Source: Armatimonadota bacterium (GTDB lineage Bacteria > Armatimonadota > HRBIN16). From it: a stretch of DNA of 64,000 nt. The notes under the pieces are model-generated. The model worked only from the letters and a program-made list of their open reading frames with translations, was not told the origin of the DNA and did no database searches. Made by a program: the position numbers and the translations under genes. Shown piece after piece: positions 13,799-20,483 of this stretch; position 1 is the stretch's first letter; each line of letters begins with the position of its first letter. Where the stretch lies: NCBI GenBank assembly GCA_049969495.1, contig JBMFOT010000007.1:1689-65688 (forward strand), written 5' to 3'.

Positions 13799-15184
13799 TC
13801 AGGGTGACAGGCGTTGCGGAAATATCTTCTCAGGGTTGCACAAACCCTGCGGGTCAAAGGCATCATGCACCCTCTGCATCGCCTGTAGGTCGGCGTCGCT
13901 ATAGAGCAAGCGCATATAATGTGCTTTTTCCACGCCCACGCCGTGCTCGCCGGTGATGCTACCGCCCATCTGCACGCACAGTCTGACGATGGCGTCGTTC
14001 GCGGCGCGTACGCGCCTGACCTCTTCGGCGTCTCGCTCGTCAAAGAGCACTATTGGGTGTAGACTGCCGTCGCCCGCATGGAACACGTTGGCGATACGCA
14101 CGCCGTGCTCCTGCCCGATTTCCATGATGCGCCTTAGCACCTGTGGCAGTTTGCTTCGGGGAACCACTGCATCCTGCGTGACGGTGCTGGGCGCCAATCT
14201 CCCCAGCGACCCCACCGCCTTCTTTCGTGCCGTCCACAGGCGCGTGCGTTCCTCCTCGTCGCGGGCAAGGCGAATCTCTTCGGCGTGGTTTGCGTTGCAG
14301 AGGTCCACCACGCGCTGTAGCTGCCTGTCCAGCCCTGCCTCCAGCCCGTCTAACTCAATCACCAGCACCGCGTCCGCATCCTGCGGGAAGCCAAAGCGGA
14401 ACGCCGCTTCTACCGCCTGCAGGGTCGTGCGGTCGATCATCTCCATCGCCGCGGGCACAATGCCCGCGGCGATAATGTCGGAAACCGTCTGACAGGCGTC
14501 TTCCAATCGCGGGTAGACCGCCAGCAGGGTGCGCCAGCTCTGGGGCAGGGGGGTGAGCTTGGCGATAACGGTGGTGAGGATGCCCAGCGTGCCCTCGCTG
14601 CCGGTAAACACACCCACCAGGTCGTATCCCAGCGGTTCCTCGCACTTCCCGCCGAACCACACCACCTCGCCGTCGGGAAGAACCACCTCCAGCCCGGTGA
14701 TGTGGTTGACGGTTACCCCGTACTTCAACGTGTGCGGACCGCCTGCGTTCTCTGCCACATTGCCGCCGATGGTGCTGACGCCTTGACTGGATGGGTCGGG
14801 CGCGTAGTGGTAGCCGGTCGCTTTCGCCGCCTTGGTGAGGTCCAGATTGATTGCTCCTGCCTGGGCGGTAATGCGTCGGTTGGGAATATCTACTTCCAGA
14901 ATGCGCGTCATCCGACTGGTGCAGAGTATCACCCCGCCTTTGACCGCCAGCGCGCCGCCCGATAGTCCCGTTCCTGCCCCGCGTGGCACAAAGGGAACGC
15001 CCAGCCGATTGCACAGCTGCACCACCTGCTGTACCTGCGCGGTTTCGGTGGGGAAGACCACCGCCTGCGGAGTCGCTTTCTCCATCGTGTAAGCGTCGCA
15101 GTCGTATACCAGCAGGTCAAACGGGTCGTGCAGCACGGCGTTCTCGCCCACGATACGCTGCAGTTCGGAGATGAGCTCTGTCAT
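13799..15184 (-). CDS. glcD: FAD-linked oxidase, glycolate oxidase GlcD / D-lactate dehydrogenase family
   Basis: PRGAGTGLSGG, APDPSS, NAGGPHTLKYG, HAGDGSLHP, TGEHGVG motifs. Confidence 0.88.
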   Translation of the reverse strand: MTELISELQRIVGENAVLHDPFDLLVYDCDAYTMEKATPQAVVFPTETAQVQQVVQLCNRLGVPFVPRGAGTGLSGGALAVKGGVILCTSRMTRILEVDIPNRRITAQAGAINLDLTKAAKATGYHYAPDPSSQGVSTIGGNVAENAGGPHTLKYGVTVNHITGLEVVLPDGEVVWFGGKCEEPLGYDLVGVFTGSEGTLGILTTVIAKLTPLPQSWRTLLAVYPRLEDACQTVSDIIAAGIVPAAMEMIDRTTLQAVEAAFRFGFPQDADAVLVIELDGLEAGLDRQLQRVVDLCNANHAEEIRLARDEEERTRLWTARKKAVGSLGRLAPSTVTQDAVVPRSKLPQVLRRIMEIGQEHGVRIANVFHAGDGSLHPIVLFDERDAEEVRRVRAANDAIVRLCVQMGGSITGEHGVGVEKAHYMRLLYSDADLQAMQRVHDAFDPQGLCNPEKIFPQRLSP

Positions 15185-15232
15185 GGTCGTTGTTATCCTC
15201 ATTGCTCGCTTAGCCGACGCAACCATTGTACC

Positions 15233-16702
15233 CTACTCCACCCTCATCTCCGTGTTGCCGAAGCGCAGCACATCGCCTGCCTGAATCACCCTCTGCTGTA
15301 CGGGTTGACCGTTCACAAAGCTGCCGTTGCGCGAGCCTTCGTCTATCAGTACCCACTGACCGCCCTGCCTCTCCAGTCGCGCGTGGCGCCGGCTGACGGT
15401 GGGGTCAAAATCGATATGCACATCGCGCCCGACCTCTCTGCCAATGGTCAACATGTTGCCCTGCAGGGGGAAAATCGCCCCTGCTTTCACTCCGCCCAGT
15501 ATGACCAGTCGGGTAGGAACCGTTCCGACCGCAGGCTGTACTGCACTTCCGGCGGATGACGGCAAAGCGGCAGGTGACGCCCCTGGCGCCAGCGCAGACG
15601 GTGCAGACGCCCCGGGCAACACACTGCACGCACACTGTCCGGTCATCGGGTCCTTGCGCTCGCCACAGTAGGGGCACAGGTAGTCCGGCAGGGGAGGGCG
15701 CGAGGAGGGTTGTTCCATCCGCTCTATTGCCTCCCTGACCAGCGAGCGCGTGGCTTTCTCGAAAAACTGCAGGCGCACAGAGCCAATCTGGATGAGGTCG
15801 CCGTCTTTCAACCATGCCTGCTGCACGGGTTGCCCGTTCAACAGAGTGCCCCCGGGCGCCCCGAGGTCTTCCAGCAGGTGGCGGTTCTGCTGCCTGATGA
15901 TGCGGGCGTGCTGTGGGGCGATGTGCGTGTCGCCAAAGAGGGGGATATCGGCGTACTCGTCGCGCCCGATGAGGCACACAGGTTTATCCACCGGGAACTC
16001 CTTGCCCTCGTTGCGCCCCAGAATGACGCGCACCCATGCTGCCTTCAGCGCCTCCTGCACCAGCGCGATGAAGAAGCCGATACTTGCGCCCAGCACGGGG
16101 AAGCCGACCGCCCGTCCGGGGGCTCCCACTTCCACTCGTTCACCATGCGACATCGCCAGATACAACGGGCTGAATATCAGCGTGAATATCTGGAAAGCCA
16201 CGCCGCCCAGCGCACCTCCAATCGCGCCCCCTATCGTGCTATGCCACCAGCGTTTGGCAGAGCCTGTGACCGCCCCCACCGCCGCGCCGATGCCAGTGCC
16301 GAAGAACAACCACCCCAACGTGCGTGGCACGATATCGGTGAGGAACCCCAGCGGCGTTGGTTCTGCTCCTGCACCGGACGGATTACCGAGCAGCTGACTG
16401 AGTGTGCCGTAGACGAAGTTCCCCAGGAACAGCGCAATCATCGCTCCGGGCAAACCAATCAACGCAGCCACAAACCCCCGACGAATCGCCTGCGCAGGCA
16501 ATCCACGCGTCAGGCTGTCTACCATGCCCAGCGAAAAACCATAACACGTTCCCAGGATGACGGATAGCCACAAGGTTTGCCTTATCATTTCTGCGGGGTC
16601 GAAAAGTGCTTTCTGGTGGTCTATCAGCGGCTCCTGTATCAGGAAAGCCACCGCTCCTCCTGCACCACCCAGCACCAGACCCAGCAGCAACCTGCCAAGC
16701 AT
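15233..16702 (-). CDS. Polytopic membrane protein with two FHA domains
   Basis: Multiple Gly-rich TM helices, FHA1 (IGRDE..IAPQHARI), CPYC..CAC, FHA2 (IGRE..VSRRHA..GSRNGSFVNG). Confidence 0.88.
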   Translation of the reverse strand: MLGRLLLGLVLGGAGGAVAFLIQEPLIDHQKALFDPAEMIRQTLWLSVILGTCYGFSLGMVDSLTRGLPAQAIRRGFVAALIGLPGAMIALFLGNFVYGTLSQLLGNPSGAGAEPTPLGFLTDIVPRTLGWLFFGTGIGAAVGAVTGSAKRWWHSTIGGAIGGALGGVAFQIFTLIFSPLYLAMSHGERVEVGAPGRAVGFPVLGASIGFFIALVQEALKAAWVRVILGRNEGKEFPVDKPVCLIGRDEYADIPLFGDTHIAPQHARIIRQQNRHLLEDLGAPGGTLLNGQPVQQAWLKDGDLIQIGSVRLQFFEKATRSLVREAIERMEQPSSRPPLPDYLCPYCGERKDPMTGQCACSVLPGASAPSALAPGASPAALPSSAGSAVQPAVGTVPTRLVILGGVKAGAIFPLQGNMLTIGREVGRDVHIDFDPTVSRRHARLERQGGQWVLIDEGSRNGSFVNGQPVQQRVIQAGDVLRFGNTEMRVE

Positions 16703-16705
16703 CGC

Positions 16706-18001
16706 TTACACTTCCCATCGGAAGAAGGTGGCACCAATCTGTATCTCGTCGCCCGGGCGTAGGGGTTGCTCGGTAATGCGCACACCGTTTACCCAGGTGC
16801 CGTTCGAGGAGCCTTCGTCGCGAATCACCCAGCTGTCGCCCTGCTTCAGCAGGCGGGCATGTCGACGGCTGACGGTGTTATCGCGATCGAGCTGTATCGT
16901 GTTCCCCACCTCGCGCCCGATGCTCACCTCCGCGCCGGTTACCTCAAAGATACTGCCTCCGTACGCTCCGCGTGCCCCCACCAGGCGCGGTGCGGTGGCG
17001 ATTGCAGTGGAGACTGAGGTTGTGGGCGTAGCAGCTGGCGCGGCGGATGTTACCGAGCAGGCGCACGCGCCCGTGACAGGGTCTATTGGCTGACCGCAGA
17101 AGGGGCAGTGCCCTTCGGGAACCTGTACCGCCGGCTTCTGGGAAGGTTGTACCGGCGGCGGGGCAGGTGGTTCCTGCGCTACGTCAATGCCCAGTTTCTT
17201 GAGCGCATCGGGCAGGGTTAACTGCTTGCGCTTCCAGATGCGGTAGCCGCTGTAAATCAATCCCACCAGCACCAGCAGTCCGAAAAGGGTGTTCCATACG
17301 GGGAAAGCGCGAGGCGCAGGCGCGGGGGACGGCGCCGTGGGCTGGGTTTGCGAAGCGGGTTGGGGTGCTGTGGGCGCAACCTCCAGCACAGGCGCACCGC
17401 TGGAGATGACCATCGTCAGGGTGACCACCGGGTCGGCGCGTTCGGCTTTCACCTCTGCCTCCTGTGAGGCAGTCAGGTTGTTACCGTAGTTCACCAGCAC
17501 GCTCACCTTGCCCAGCTTCACCCGCTCCAGCGAGACGACGCCGTTTTGCGAGGGGTCTAGCAAGGCGGTGTGGATGGTGTTGTTCGCGTCGGTGAGCATC
17601 ACGAACGCCGCGGCGATGGGCTTATCCTCCGGTGTTTGCAACCTCACCTGCACGCGCATGGCATACTGGAACTGGTCGGGCGTGACGGTGACGCTGGTAT
17701 CGTTCGGCTTCAGGGTCACCAGGGCAAGGTTGCCGTACTTCACATCGTATACGCCCACCCGTGCGCCTTCCAGAGTCTTGTCAGCGGTATCGGCGAACCG
17801 CTTCTTGAGCGAGGCGATGTCCAGCTCCACCTTCCCGCCTGCGCTCTCGTTCGGCGGCAGGAACACCGTTTGCCCGTTTGCCGATTCCAGCCACACCAGA
17901 TACTTGCCCTCGCTGGGCACGTTCACCGTGACCTTATCGGGCAGCGCCCACGTCATCGTTGTGATAATCGCCAGACACGTCACCCACGCGATACGCCTCA
18001 T
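16706..18001 (-). CDS. Single-pass membrane protein with an extracytoplasmic domain and a C-terminal FHA domain
   Basis: Signal peptide, Pro-rich linker, TM, CPFC..CAC, IGRE..VSRRHA..SSNGTWVNG. Confidence 0.88.
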   Translation of the reverse strand: MRRIAWVTCLAIITTMTWALPDKVTVNVPSEGKYLVWLESANGQTVFLPPNESAGGKVELDIASLKKRFADTADKTLEGARVGVYDVKYGNLALVTLKPNDTSVTVTPDQFQYAMRVQVRLQTPEDKPIAAAFVMLTDANNTIHTALLDPSQNGVVSLERVKLGKVSVLVNYGNNLTASQEAEVKAERADPVVTLTMVISSGAPVLEVAPTAPQPASQTQPTAPSPAPAPRAFPVWNTLFGLLVLVGLIYSGYRIWKRKQLTLPDALKKLGIDVAQEPPAPPPVQPSQKPAVQVPEGHCPFCGQPIDPVTGACACSVTSAAPAATPTTSVSTAIATAPRLVGARGAYGGSIFEVTGAEVSIGREVGNTIQLDRDNTVSRRHARLLKQGDSWVIRDEGSSNGTWVNGVRITEQPLRPGDEIQIGATFFRWEV

Positions 18002-19590
18002 GTTCCTGTCCTCCTATCCTTCAGCGGCTCGGCAGGAGCCTCGCCCTCCAGCGTTTGTATCGCCTGCGGCAGGAGTCGGATGATGTCTCCCGCTATGAAG
18101 CCTGCCATTCCCAGCTCCTGCGCGGCGAGGTCGCCTGCCAGTCCGTGTATATATACGCCTGCTGCCGCGCCCTGTTGCATGTCCAAACCCTGCGCTATCA
18201 GTCCTGCTATCGCGCCGGTTAGCACATCGCCGCTACCGCCCGTTGCCATGCCCGCGTTGCCAGTAGGGTTTACCCAGATTCTGCCTTCGGGTGTGGCGAT
18301 AACGGTGCGCGCTCCCTTCAACGCCACAACTGCCCCAAAACGCTGCGCCGCCTGTCGCGCCATCTCCAGCCGGTCCGCCTGCACCGTCGCGGTATCGGTG
18401 TTCATCAGCCTCGCCATCTCGCCCGGGTGGGGGGTGAGCACCAGTGACGGGTGTCCAGCAGGCAGGATGTCCGGCTCCAGCGCGATGCAGTTGAGCGCGT
18501 CGGCGTCGATAACGCAGGGAACCCGCGCGACAGCCAGCAGTTTTCGCAACGCCTCGCGGGCAGGTGGGTGGGTGCTCCAACCCGGCCCGATGGCGAGCAC
18601 GTTCGCCCTCTGCAGCAACGGCGTCATCGCGTCGACGGATTCTGCGCTCAGGCAACCTTCGGGCGCGTCGGATAGCGGATGCACCATCGCCTCGCGCAGA
18701 GCGCTGGCTGCAGCGGCGTAGACGCTCTGCGGAACCGCCACAGAACATAGCCCTGCGCCCACGCGCAATGCGGCTTCTGCCGCCATCATCGGCGCGCCCG
18801 CCAACCCCACCGAACCGCCCACCACCAGTACATGCCCGAAATGCCCTTTATGTGCATCCGGCGGGCGAGCAGGCAACCATTCGCGCACCTGTTCCCGCGT
18901 TATCAGACGGCGAGGGATGTTTGCCTGTTCCACCACCACAGCAGGGATGCCGATGTCGGCGACCACTACCTCTCCCGCATACTCCGCGCCCGGGTAGACC
19001 GCCAACCCCACTTTCATCGCGCCGAAGGTGACAGTGAGCCTCGCACGCACGGCGCAACCGCATACCGCACCGGTATCGGCGTCGATTCCGGATGGCACGT
19101 CCACTGCCACGACCGGCACAGCGCACCCTTCAAAGAAGCGTATCACCTCGCCGATGAGCCCGCGCACCTCGCCGGTGACGCCGATACCCAGCAGGGCGTC
19201 CACCACGATGTCCCATCCACTCGCCCAGAGGTCGCGCAGTTGGTCGATGGAGCGCAGCACATGTAATGGCAGTTCCAGTTTCTGCACGATGCGCAGGTTG
19301 GTCAGGGCGTCGCCTGCCACTTTGGCAGGGTCTGCAACCAGTACCACTAGCACCTCCGCGCCGCGTTGTGCCGCGTGACGCGCCACCACCATCCCGTCGC
19401 CGCCGTTGTTACCGCCGCCGCACAACACCAGCACGCGCTTGCCCTGCCAGTTGCCGAACCGTTTCTCTGCCTGATTTACCACCTGCAAGCCCGCGTTCTC
19501 CATCAGCAGTAAGCCGGGGATGCCCATCTCCTCGATGGTTCGGCGGTCCATCTGGCGCATCTCCGCGGCAGTCACCAGCACCGGCAACAT
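17998..19590 (-). CDS. nnr: Bifunctional NAD(P)HX epimerase/dehydratase
   Basis: GGGNNGGDG, DVPSG, KGHFGHV, TPHPGEM, GMATGGSGDVL. Confidence 0.95.
   Translation of the reverse strand: MLPVLVTAAEMRQMDRRTIEEMGIPGLLLMENAGLQVVNQAEKRFGNWQGKRVLVLCGGGNNGGDGMVVARHAAQRGAEVLVVLVADPAKVAGDALTNLRIVQKLELPLHVLRSIDQLRDLWASGWDIVVDALLGIGVTGEVRGLIGEVIRFFEGCAVPVVAVDVPSGIDADTGAVCGCAVRARLTVTFGAMKVGLAVYPGAEYAGEVVVADIGIPAVVVEQANIPRRLITREQVREWLPARPPDAHKGHFGHVLVVGGSVGLAGAPMMAAEAALRVGAGLCSVAVPQSVYAAAASALREAMVHPLSDAPEGCLSAESVDAMTPLLQRANVLAIGPGWSTHPPAREALRKLLAVARVPCVIDADALNCIALEPDILPAGHPSLVLTPHPGEMARLMNTDTATVQADRLEMARQAAQRFGAVVALKGARTVIATPEGRIWVNPTGNAGMATGGSGDVLTGAIAGLIAQGLDMQQGAAAGVYIHGLAGDLAAQELGMAGFIAGDIIRLLPQAIQTLEGEAPAEPLKDRRTGT
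18025..18051. repeat. REP family D (GGAGGGCGAGGCTCC..) inside the 3' end of nnr
   Basis: cggctcggcaggagcctcgccctccag matches the copies at 20484, 29246 and 29317; encodes LEGEAPAEP. Confidence 0.75.
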
Positions 19591-19593
19591 GCT

Positions 19594-20328
19594 CTATCCC
19601 TCCTGGCGCTGTGCGATGATGGCACGCACCCGGTTCAGGTCTTCCTCCGTATCGACGCCGATGGAGGTCTGCTCTACGCGCACCATGCGGATACGGTAAC
19701 CGTTCTCCAGCACGCGCAGTTGCTCCAGCATCTCCATCTGTTCCAGCGGGGTCGGTTCCATCGCCGCGTACTGGAGCAGGAAGTCGCGCCGGTAGGCGTA
19801 GATTCCCAGATGTTTGTAGACGATGGCGGGAGCAGAGGGGTCGCGTGGGTAGGGGATGCGCGAGCGTGAGAAGTACAGCGCGTTGCCCATGCGGTCTACC
19901 ACCACTTTCACCACCGTCGGCTTGTCCTTTTCCTCCTCGGTAGCGGGGCACATCAGACTGCTCATCGGCAGAGCAGGGTCTTCGAGGAGCGGACGCGCGA
20001 CCGCGTCGATGTTCTCCGGTGGCATGAGCGGTTCGTCACCCTGAATGTTCACGATGACCTCTGCGGAGAGGTTTTGCGCTGCCTCTGCCAGCCGCTCGGT
20101 GCCGGAGCGGTGCCTGGGCGAGGTCATCACCGCGATACCGCCGAAAGCGCGTACCACTTCGGCGATCTCTTCATCGGGCGTGGCGACCATCACCTCGCGC
20201 AGCGTTTTCGCCTGTTTCGCATTGTGCCAGACCCACCATATCATCGGTTTGCCCGCGATGTCCAGCAAGGGCTTGTTCGGCAAACGAACCGCCGCCAGCC
20301 GCGCCGGAATGATGCCCACGACTTCCAT
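19594..20328 (-). CDS. kdsB: 3-deoxy-manno-octulosonate cytidylyltransferase
   Basis: IIPARLAAVRLPNKPL, NIQGDEP, YFSRSRIP, HLGIYAY, EMLEQLRVLENG. Confidence 0.95.
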   Translation of the reverse strand: MEVVGIIPARLAAVRLPNKPLLDIAGKPMIWWVWHNAKQAKTLREVMVATPDEEIAEVVRAFGGIAVMTSPRHRSGTERLAEAAQNLSAEVIVNIQGDEPLMPPENIDAVARPLLEDPALPMSSLMCPATEEEKDKPTVVKVVVDRMGNALYFSRSRIPYPRDPSAPAIVYKHLGIYAYRRDFLLQYAAMEPTPLEQMEMLEQLRVLENGYRIRMVRVEQTSIGVDTEEDLNRVRAIIAQRQEG

Positions 20329-20483
20329 ACTCTCCTCCTCCTTCCCTGTAATCATTCGCCACCCCTCTGAGCGATTCCCCTGTGTCTGTGTTTACTCTGC
20401 AGCAGGGCAATTCTGGCTAAAAAACCGGTGGCACAGTGGGGTAGTAGTGGAGCGTCAAGCATGATTCCTGGCTTCTTAGCCAG

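Follow-up and report, generated by a model that had tools for sequence, protein, structure and literature searches.

The two adjacent genes found at positions 15233-18001 of a 64-kb stretch of DNA from an Armatimonadota bacterium (contig JBMFOT010000007.1; the whole stretch is named hereafter the window) seem, on balance, to encode a pair of membrane-anchored adaptors that read phosphothreonine in a switch formed by a Hanks-type Ser/Thr kinase and a PP2C phosphatase. Gene A (P0001; 16706-18001, minus strand) encodes a 431-amino acid single-pass membrane protein with a four-cysteine (Cys4) knuckle, a linker and an FHA domain at the C-terminus, whereas gene B (P0002; 15233-16702, minus strand) encodes a 489-amino acid polytopic membrane protein with a first FHA domain (FHA1), a Cys4 knuckle, a linker and a second FHA domain (FHA2). 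This reading is based on the architecture of both proteins, the conservation of the phosphothreonine-binding residues, the synteny of the pair across the phylum and the kinase, phosphatase and vWA genes linked to it in relatives. Two tandem membrane FHA genes had been proposed here from the nucleotide sequence alone (hereafter the original prediction), and both open reading frames (ORFs) are indeed present on the minus strand, with the coordinates given above.

Both proteins scored above the gathering cut-off (20.7 bits) of the Pfam FHA model PF00498. The canonical FHA domain of A spans residues 338-431 (16709-16990, minus strand), with the Pfam match at residues 359-423 (E-value 3.6e-20, 72.6 bits). 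Two Pfam FHA domains were obtained for B (residues ~225-315 and 419-482; E-value 1.6e-35, 121.8 bits), the second of which lies within the canonical FHA2 (residues 397-489; 15236-15514, minus strand). Residues G362-R363, S378-R379-x-H381 and N400-G401 of A were invariant in 55/55 aligned homologues, and G421-R422, S437-R438-x-H440 and N459-G460 of FHA2 in 57/57. The capacity to bind phosphothreonine that had been attributed to the C-terminal FHA domains is consistent with these alignments, in which all the contact residues are kept in both families. The best Foldseek match was GarA/OdhI for the FHA domain of A (39% identity, TM score 0.85-0.93) as well as for FHA2 of B (35% identity, TM score up to 0.96). 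The next solved relatives of the C-terminal domains, by sequence or fold, were FhaA, EmbR, DgcB, Rv1747 and ArnA; GarA/OdhI, FhaA, EmbR and DgcB are known as substrates of kinases and readers of their marks.

The juxtamembrane FHA1 of B (residues 222-315; 15758-16039, minus strand; Pfam Yop-YscD_cpl/FHA) is non-canonical. It keeps G246-R247, H265 and N289-G290, and the position of the phosphate-binding Ser is occupied by Ala in 32/57 homologues and by Ser in only 4/57, so that most of the B family reads A-P-x-H-A where S-R-x-H is expected. Because this Ser has been replaced, FHA1 is probably a phosphate-independent interaction domain. The loss of the phosphate-binding Ser would also fit a different explanation, namely that A and B serve as structural components of a machine that spans the envelope (a secretion, gliding or pilus-like apparatus) whose FHA domains act in assembly independently of phosphate, as in SctD/YscD of type III secretion, TagH of type VI secretion or GltG of Myxococcus. 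The additional match to the Pfam model Yop-YscD_cpl, the weak NCBIfam matches to TagH, GltG and SctD and the periplasmic beta-sandwich region of A point in the same direction. However, the NCBIfam scores fell far under their cut-offs (14.9 versus 86 bits for SctD, 66.7 versus 120.25 for TagH and 55.4 versus 650 for GltG), and no secretion or motility genes were found beside the pair, either in the window or in the contexts of seven related loci (L001-L007). Moreover, the C-terminal FHA domains keep every phosphothreonine residue and the recurrent neighbours of the pair are kinase and phosphatase genes, which makes a role in such a machine unlikely.

In order to analyse the topology, AlphaFold2 models were built on 55 homologues of A and 57 of B (mean predicted local distance difference test, pLDDT, of 85.6 and 87.3, respectively). 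From the N- to the C-terminus, A consists of a signal peptide (residues 1-20), two beta-sandwich domains, a Pro-rich spacer, one transmembrane helix, a juxtamembrane motif, the knuckle, the linker and the FHA domain. The two extracytoplasmic domains (residues 21-200; 17402-17941, minus strand), immunoglobulin (Ig)-like or CarboxypepD_reg-like, were modelled as all beta with a pLDDT of 91-98. Residues 117-197 gave a weak match to the Pfam model CarboxypepD_reg (E-value 0.002-0.008, under the cut-off), and Foldseek returned only weak pilin and TIE Ig-like matches for this part. The transmembrane helix (residues 235-259; 17225-17299, minus strand) was modelled as such, agrees with the hydropathy and is followed by a basic stretch. 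After it comes the motif (T)-x-x-x-A-L-K-K-L-G-[VI], in which G271 is conserved in 53/55 homologues, L267 in 46/55 and T262 in 29/55. T262, just before A-L-K-K-L-G (window 17213-17236, residues 256-263 of A), is Thr in 29/55 and Ser in 5/55 homologues, and may be regarded as a candidate phosphorylation site. The linker of A (residues 318-337, ~20 amino acids) is rich in Ala, Pro, Ser and Thr and was modelled as disordered (pLDDT below 50 at residues 318-334).

Protein B begins with six long helices, followed by FHA1 immediately after helix 6, a short helix, the knuckle, the linker and FHA2. The membrane domain (residues 1-220; 16043-16702, minus strand) is rich in glycine zippers, and its helices were modelled at residues 2-26, 36-65, 69-105, 117-144, 149-184 and 193-218, with pLDDT values mostly above 90; the positive-inside rule places both termini inside the cell. 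Glycine-zipper Pfam models matched this domain weakly, under their cut-offs, and in the database it was invariably accompanied by an FHA domain. No fold could be assigned to it by Foldseek, since searches with the full-length model returned nearly FHA matches only, as was also the case for A. The linker of B (residues 362-396) comprises 35 residues, is rich in Ala, Pro, Ser and Thr and was modelled as disordered (pLDDT below 50 at residues 365-393). The topologies described in the original prediction, i.e. a periplasmic domain and one transmembrane helix in A, and many transmembrane helices (six) plus a second FHA domain in B, thus agree with the models and, for A, with the hydropathy. According to the modelled topology, both are inner-membrane proteins with cytoplasmic FHA domains, and only A has a sizeable extracytoplasmic part. 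The term trans-envelope, which had been applied to the pair, is not supported; the periplasmic part of A amounts to only ~200 amino acids and nothing points to an outer-membrane reach.

A and B share a cassette formed by the motif, the linker and the FHA domain (44% identity over 161 amino acids, E-value 3e-36, by BLASTP). The cysteine motifs had been quoted exactly: CPFCGQPIDPVTGACACSV at residues 299-317 of A (17051-17107, minus strand; pLDDT ~77-85, short beta bridges) and CPYCGERKDPMTGQCACSV at residues 343-361 of B (15620-15676, minus strand; pLDDT ~81-86). The consensus is C-[PQAE]-[FY]-C-G-x2-K-D-x2-3-G-x-C-A-C-[ST], and in the A family C299, C302, G303, D307, G311, C313, A314 and C315 are each at least 90% conserved. 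When a degenerate DNA pattern of the motif was run against the window, only 17057-17107 and 15626-15676 were matched, with 0 matches in 100 shuffles. The motif matched no Pfam or NCBIfam model. Even at E-values up to 10, no Pfam zinc finger was retrieved. None of the curated zinc-ribbon families (Zn_Ribbon_1, DZR, Zn_ribbon_3 and others) gave a significant match, and the best Pfam scores, all far under the cut-offs, corresponded to DUF3090 (E-value 0.1), DUF2116 (0.15), the TFIIB ribbon (0.22) and L24e (0.36). Hence, the motif lies outside the well-described zinc-ribbon families, as had been expected. The predicted role of the Cys4 knuckle is probably that of a structural zinc site. The "novel zinc knuckle" of the original prediction holds as regards the sequence motif, which is new, but not as regards the design, because the order Cys4 finger-linker-FHA was already known from the archaeal protein ArnA, and proteins combining a zinc ribbon with FHA domains occupy the same gene cluster in relatives.

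The distribution of the motif was analysed at the protein and DNA levels. A 32-column profile compared with 1.84 billion cluster representatives gave 150 matches at E-values up to 1e-3. Approximately 125 of them carry the motif, nearly all with an FHA signature 55-110 residues downstream and of A or B type; the remaining matches are Cys-rich repeat proteins. The DNA pattern, scanned against one genome per GTDB species, retrieved 71 loci, 64 of them in frame inside an A- or B-type gene; these counts are lower bounds, since the pattern covers only the longer variant of the motif (D-x3-G). Every in-frame locus with a lineage name belongs to Armatimonadota (Fimbriimonadales, Chthonomonadia or Armatimonadia) and the others are labelled only as "bacterium", including HR15 and HR16. 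Likewise, the lineage names found in the A and B families are exclusively those of Armatimonadota. These searches show a genuine, strongly conserved motif that, when combined with the FHA domain in a cassette, is private to this phylum. A third architecture was observed in a few matches (P0290, P0298 and P0368), consisting of ~200 residues without any Pfam match, ~5 transmembrane helices, the Cys4 motif and one FHA domain.

The comparison of the motif profile with the PDB sequences gave a match to rubredoxin (E-value 0.0055), in which the first half of the motif resembles the CPxCG knuckle. The motif might accordingly act as a redox sensor based on thiols or metal, or as an iron site like that of rubredoxin, and would then couple oxidative or metal stress to the availability of the FHA domains, an explanation that is compatible with an adaptor function. 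It could explain the linkage to the NAD(P)HX-repair gene nnr, which is the commonest conserved neighbour of the pair (upstream of A in L001, L003, L006 and L007, and directly upstream in at least 19 of the 35 evaluable pairs), and a flavin adenine dinucleotide (FAD)-linked oxidase gene follows the pair in the window. However, the likeness to rubredoxin is generic and limited to one knuckle, in many lineages the pair persists although A lacks the motif, and the nnr linkage is absent in the loci of the Fimbriimonadales type. A redox function of the motif is therefore considered rather unlikely.

The co-occurrence of both genes is well established in relatives. Complete A-B pairs were obtained at 40 loci from other genomes, and in all of them A precedes B on the same strand. 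The original prediction had left the cognate Ser/Thr kinases to be located, and genes for Hanks kinases, as well as for PP2C, were found immediately after the pair in several lineages. Downstream of A and B in L006 and L007 come genes for a vWA protein, a protein that combines two FHA domains with a zinc ribbon of the classical CxxC...CxxC type (2xFHA protein), a PP2C phosphatase and a Hanks kinase. Parts of this series were present in L003, L013, L021, L039, L044, L051, L059 and L061, and vWA genes were detected at 11 loci in total. The linkage of the pair to the vWA/kinase module is recurrent in several lineages and is not universal.

Several observations were made on these neighbouring genes and their relatives. 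The vWA proteins of L003 (9530-10909), L006 (10908-12254) and L007 (10826-12175) contain 2-3 N-terminal D-P-x-[KR]-T-x-x-[LMIA] repeats (examples are DPNKTHI, DPNATQL and DPNRTAM), and the D-P-x-[KR]-T repeats would suit binding by FHA domains and are strong candidates for kinase sites that these domains read. Many A-type proteins have a comparable D-P-[NST]-x stretch right before the first Cys of the knuckle. In L005 (9322-11427) a motif-less or shorter relative of B is encoded beside a membrane protein of 140 amino acids with a zinc ribbon and a kinase that matches Zn_Ribbon_1. In L080 (346-7873; Binataceae) a distant B relative, with membrane and FHA parts, lies beside three kinases and a PP2C, one of the kinases being a fusion with PP2C and a zinc ribbon. 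Another conserved gene downstream of the pair was sought and rejected, since the large secreted proteins encoded after B in L001/L036 bear no relation to those in L054/L074.

Combinations of kinase, PP2C, FHA and vWA proteins occur in biological conflict systems (PMC7159879), and the kinase of the relatives matches PADLOC kinase models. This raises the alternative that the genes constitute a mobile kinase/FHA-type system for defence against phages. Nevertheless, no model of PADLOC-DB 2.0 recognises A, B or the vWA and 2xFHA proteins, and only the generic kinase and the PP2C of relatives are recovered. In addition, the pair is inherited at a fixed place beside a housekeeping gene across the whole phylum, and the cassette tree largely follows orthology. 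A defence function is thus extremely improbable.

The closest precedent for the reading of A and B as adaptors of a kinase/phosphatase switch is the Arn system of Sulfolobus acidocaldarius, in which the finger of ArnA docks loosely on unphosphorylated ArnB, while the FHA domain binds ArnB tightly after its phosphorylation by kinases (PMC6509490, PMC12852372). The docking of the Cys4 finger on ArnB is seen in the structure 8S05 (PMC12852372), and the switch also comprises the kinases ArnC and ArnD and the phosphatase PP2A (PDB 8S05, 5A8I and 5A8J; PMC6509490, PMC12852372). The order Cys4 finger-linker-FHA of ArnA is the same as that of the A/B cassette. The vWA protein of L007 matches ArnB (8S05_A) over nearly its full length (E-value 8.8e-13) and also the paralogue vWA2 (5A8J). 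An Arn-like neighbourhood, with an ArnB-like vWA protein, a zinc-ribbon FHA protein, a phosphatase and a kinase after the pair, occurs in relatives and not in the window. On the other hand, ArnA is soluble, whereas A and B are membrane proteins; ArnA (8S05_C) was matched through its FHA domain only and not by the motif profile; by sequence, GarA/OdhI is a nearer relative of the FHA domains of A and B than ArnA is; and the phosphatase found in the A/B relatives is a PP2C instead of a PP2A. The resemblance to the Arn switch is one of design and not of membership.

In the mechanism that we infer, the knuckles would bind zinc, A and B would form a complex, and the ligand and the output would be as follows. 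By analogy with ArnA and ArnB, the knuckle would provide a weak, phosphorylation-independent hold on a partner, for which the best candidate, although a tentative one, is the ArnB-like vWA hub whose gene adjoins the pair in other lineages. The C-terminal FHA domain would then lock onto a Thr phosphorylated by the kinase, with the result that the hub would be recruited or clustered at the membrane, and PP2C would reverse this locking. The periplasmic beta-sandwich domains of A would supply the input, possibly by sensing or binding something in the envelope. In B, FHA1 and the glycine-zipper helices would serve for assembly, and FHA1 would bind its partner without phosphate. In its most complete form, which we consider possible although speculative, the pair would be the phylum-wide, membrane-tethered bacterial counterpart of the ArnA/ArnB switch, with knuckles that hold an ArnB/Sec23-like vWA hub loosely at the membrane, FHA domains that lock its DPx[KR]T phospho-sites and an envelope signal fed in through A, and it would remain functional where, as would be the case in this lineage, the genes of the reader pair and of the kinase module are separated.

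Several observations weigh against a function of A and B as phosphothreonine readers of this kind. The A/B knuckle (CxxC-x10-11-CxC) has no detectable sequence similarity to the RanBP2-type finger of ArnA (CxxC-x10-CxxC), the second half of the knuckle being CxC and not CxxC. No kinase, PP2C or vWA gene was found in the 64-kb window, which is the only part of this genome that was covered. The lack of an ArnB-type vWA partner in the window differs from the Arn system, and such a partner lies directly downstream of B in only 5/30 evaluable complete pairs (L003, L006, L007, L039 and L061), plus 6 further loci. The motif is present in both proteins in 22 of the 40 complete pairs, plus the pair of the window, but it occurs in B only in 16/40 (the Fimbriimonadales type) and in neither protein in 2/40 (L003/L004, one contig from two sources), and these motif-less states are under-counted because the loci were retrieved through the motif. 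The motif is not essential to the pair and, since it is dispensable in some lineages, it would modulate the pair and not define its function. The phosphorylatable linkers of the original prediction are plausible, given that at least one Thr is present in 231 of the 253 linkers (median of 24 amino acids between motif and FHA domain in 253 homologues), but hypothetical; a positionally conserved linker Thr was sought in the homologue alignments and none was found. Finally, zinc binding, the contact between A and B and phosphorylation are predicted features.

The FHA adaptors of mycobacteria offer a further comparison. FhaA (Rv0020c) and FhaB/FipA (Rv0019c) are encoded by adjacent genes that head the pstP-rodA-pbpA-pknA-pknB cluster. 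As in the A/B loci, two adjacent genes encode FHA adaptors and show linkage to PP2C and Hanks kinases, and FhaB/FipA is membrane-anchored with a C-terminal FHA domain. The best NCBIfam match of both A and B was FhaB/FipA (NF049868), with 74.2 and 109.8 bits, respectively, under the equivalog cut-off of 125 bits, and this match covers only the FHA domain and part of the linker. Unlike A and B, FhaA and FhaB lack the Cys4 motif, the periplasmic domain and the six-helix domain, and the A/B locus has neither rodA nor pbpA. The GarA/OdhI model (NF041660) gave 61.3 bits for A and 104.3 bits for B, under the cut-off of 200 bits; it stands for small, soluble FHA proteins whose phospho-switch is N-terminal, whereas A (431 amino acids) and B (489 amino acids) are membrane proteins.

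The FHA domains of Rv1747 from Mycobacterium tuberculosis are separated by a disordered phospho-acceptor linker, and this regulatory module is controlled by PknF. B resembles Rv1747 in being polytopic and in having two FHA domains joined by a disordered linker that contains Ser and Thr, and the FHA domains of Rv1747 are among the sequence matches. Rv1747 is an ATP-binding cassette (ABC) transporter with an FHA1-linker-FHA2 module (PMC3138270). Its FHA domains are N-terminal and it is an exporter with ATPase domains, whereas B has no transporter signature, has lost the phosphate-binding Ser of FHA1 and carries the Cys4 knuckle in the linker. The parallel suggests that multivalent binding between phosphothreonine and FHA domains might produce clustering at the membrane. 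With respect to the kinase module, the genes found after the pair in L006, L007, L013, L021 and L051 form a vWA-PP2C-Ser/Thr kinase triad plus FHA proteins. The "TerY-P triad" is a known vWA-PP2C-kinase triad. Another one is encoded by DRA0331-0334 of Deinococcus (bioRxiv 10.64898/2026.01.23.701218). No triad is present in the window, and membrane FHA proteins with a Cys4 cassette fall outside the described triads.

In the window, A and B belong to a run of five densely packed genes on the minus strand, in the order kdsB-nnr-A-B-glcD-like, with spacing that ranges from a 4-nt overlap to a 6-nt gap. The run starts with kdsB (19594-20355, minus strand), which encodes the cytidine monophosphate (CMP)-3-deoxy-D-manno-octulosonate (Kdo) synthetase (Pfam CTP_transf_3, E-value 3.7e-57) and is separated by 3 nt from nnr (17998-19590, minus strand), encoding the bifunctional NAD(P)H-hydrate repair enzyme (Pfam YjeF_N and Carb_kinase). 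The stop codon of nnr overlaps the start codon of A by 4 nt (ATGA). The gene for the GlcD-like FAD-linked oxidase (13799-15226, minus strand; Pfam FAD_binding_4 and FAD-oxidase_C), 6 nt downstream of B, occupies the place held by the vWA gene in other lineages. The Pfam matches bear out the identities assigned earlier to kdsB, nnr and glcD, and the tight spacing fits a single operon, as had been proposed. An extracytoplasmic function (ECF) sigma factor gene lies 211 nt upstream. Scanning for promoters and terminators gave nothing exceeding the shuffled background, and in the read archives the sequence was matched only in hot-spring DNA metagenomes, with no RNA runs containing it.

This arrangement had led to the suggestion that the pair is tied to envelope (Kdo) synthesis, in which case A and B would regulate the formation of lipopolysaccharide (LPS) or of other envelope components. 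The five genes are tightly packed in the window and keep the same order in the close relatives L025, L046 and L049, the only loci with kdsB beside the pair; as for glcD, only L038 and L046 have it after B. All four of these close relatives share at least 74% identity with the window in the neighbouring genes. In contrast, kdsB is absent near the pair in L001, L002, L003, L006, L007 and all the more distant loci, the adjacency of kdsB and glcD is missing from L001-L007 and other lineages, and the pair itself is far more widely conserved than the adjacency to kdsB. The flanking by kdsB and glcD is therefore lineage-specific and the tie to Kdo synthesis incidental, which leaves regulation of LPS or envelope synthesis as a very unlikely function.

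The evolution of the cassette was assessed by comparing A and B within and between genomes. The FHA domains of A and B share 49.5% identity within a genome and 43.4% between genomes. In the maximum-likelihood tree, the cassettes were grouped by type (orthology) in most lineages. The A and B cassettes of one lineage (L024, L034 and L053) cluster together with support values of 100/99, and the motifs of L053 are identical; this pattern points to local gene conversion, or to re-duplication, between the adjacent genes. A general process of gene conversion between A and B was rejected, since the tree shows type-wise orthology in most lineages and clear homogenisation in only that one. The cassette thus goes back to an old duplication, after which a single local homogenisation took place.

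The other 7 of the 71 loci retrieved with the DNA pattern lack an FHA domain: one is out of frame, two belong to Bryobacterales, three correspond to DUF3090 proteins of Acidimicrobiales and one to a methanogen. The DUF3090 proteins (PF11290, E-value 2e-40) are encoded in L029 (2731-3246, minus strand), L042 (5871-6386, plus strand) and L030 (3-164, plus strand). Their C-terminus, CPYCGRPLD[AP]EQGLCACYN, agrees with the Armatimonadota knuckle in spacing and key residues, and no FHA domain follows. The knuckle could be a mini zinc-binding element of more general use, employed in this case at the C-terminus of the unrelated DUF3090 family. In the two Bryobacterales genomes, a 64-amino acid ORF contains CKYCGSWRDPAGG[YC]CAC without an FHA domain (L011, 6460-6651, minus strand; L033, 6237-6428, plus strand). 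The methanogen locus (L035, 561-1355, plus strand) encodes a 265-amino acid multi-zinc-ribbon protein with two motif-like copies and no FHA domain. The Bryobacterales ORF and the methanogen copies may be due to chance or convergence.

FHA adaptors of Ser/Thr-kinase switches are known, and it is the membrane-bound form with a private Cys4 knuckle that is undescribed; the literature search found no paper on the A and B proteins or on FHA signalling in Armatimonadota. To our knowledge, nothing is known about Ser/Thr-kinase signalling in this phylum, which is poorly studied and has few cultured members. The tempting link to LPS (Kdo) synthesis is removed, and the conserved reader pair provides a concrete entry point to kinase signalling in Armatimonadota, because it combines an easily searched sequence signature with clear mutational targets (the four Cys, and an Arg and a Ser in each FHA domain). 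If the knuckle works like the finger of ArnA, a design in which a zinc finger holds and an FHA domain locks would be common to archaea and bacteria, and in Armatimonadota this two-step design would come with a membrane anchor and a periplasmic domain.

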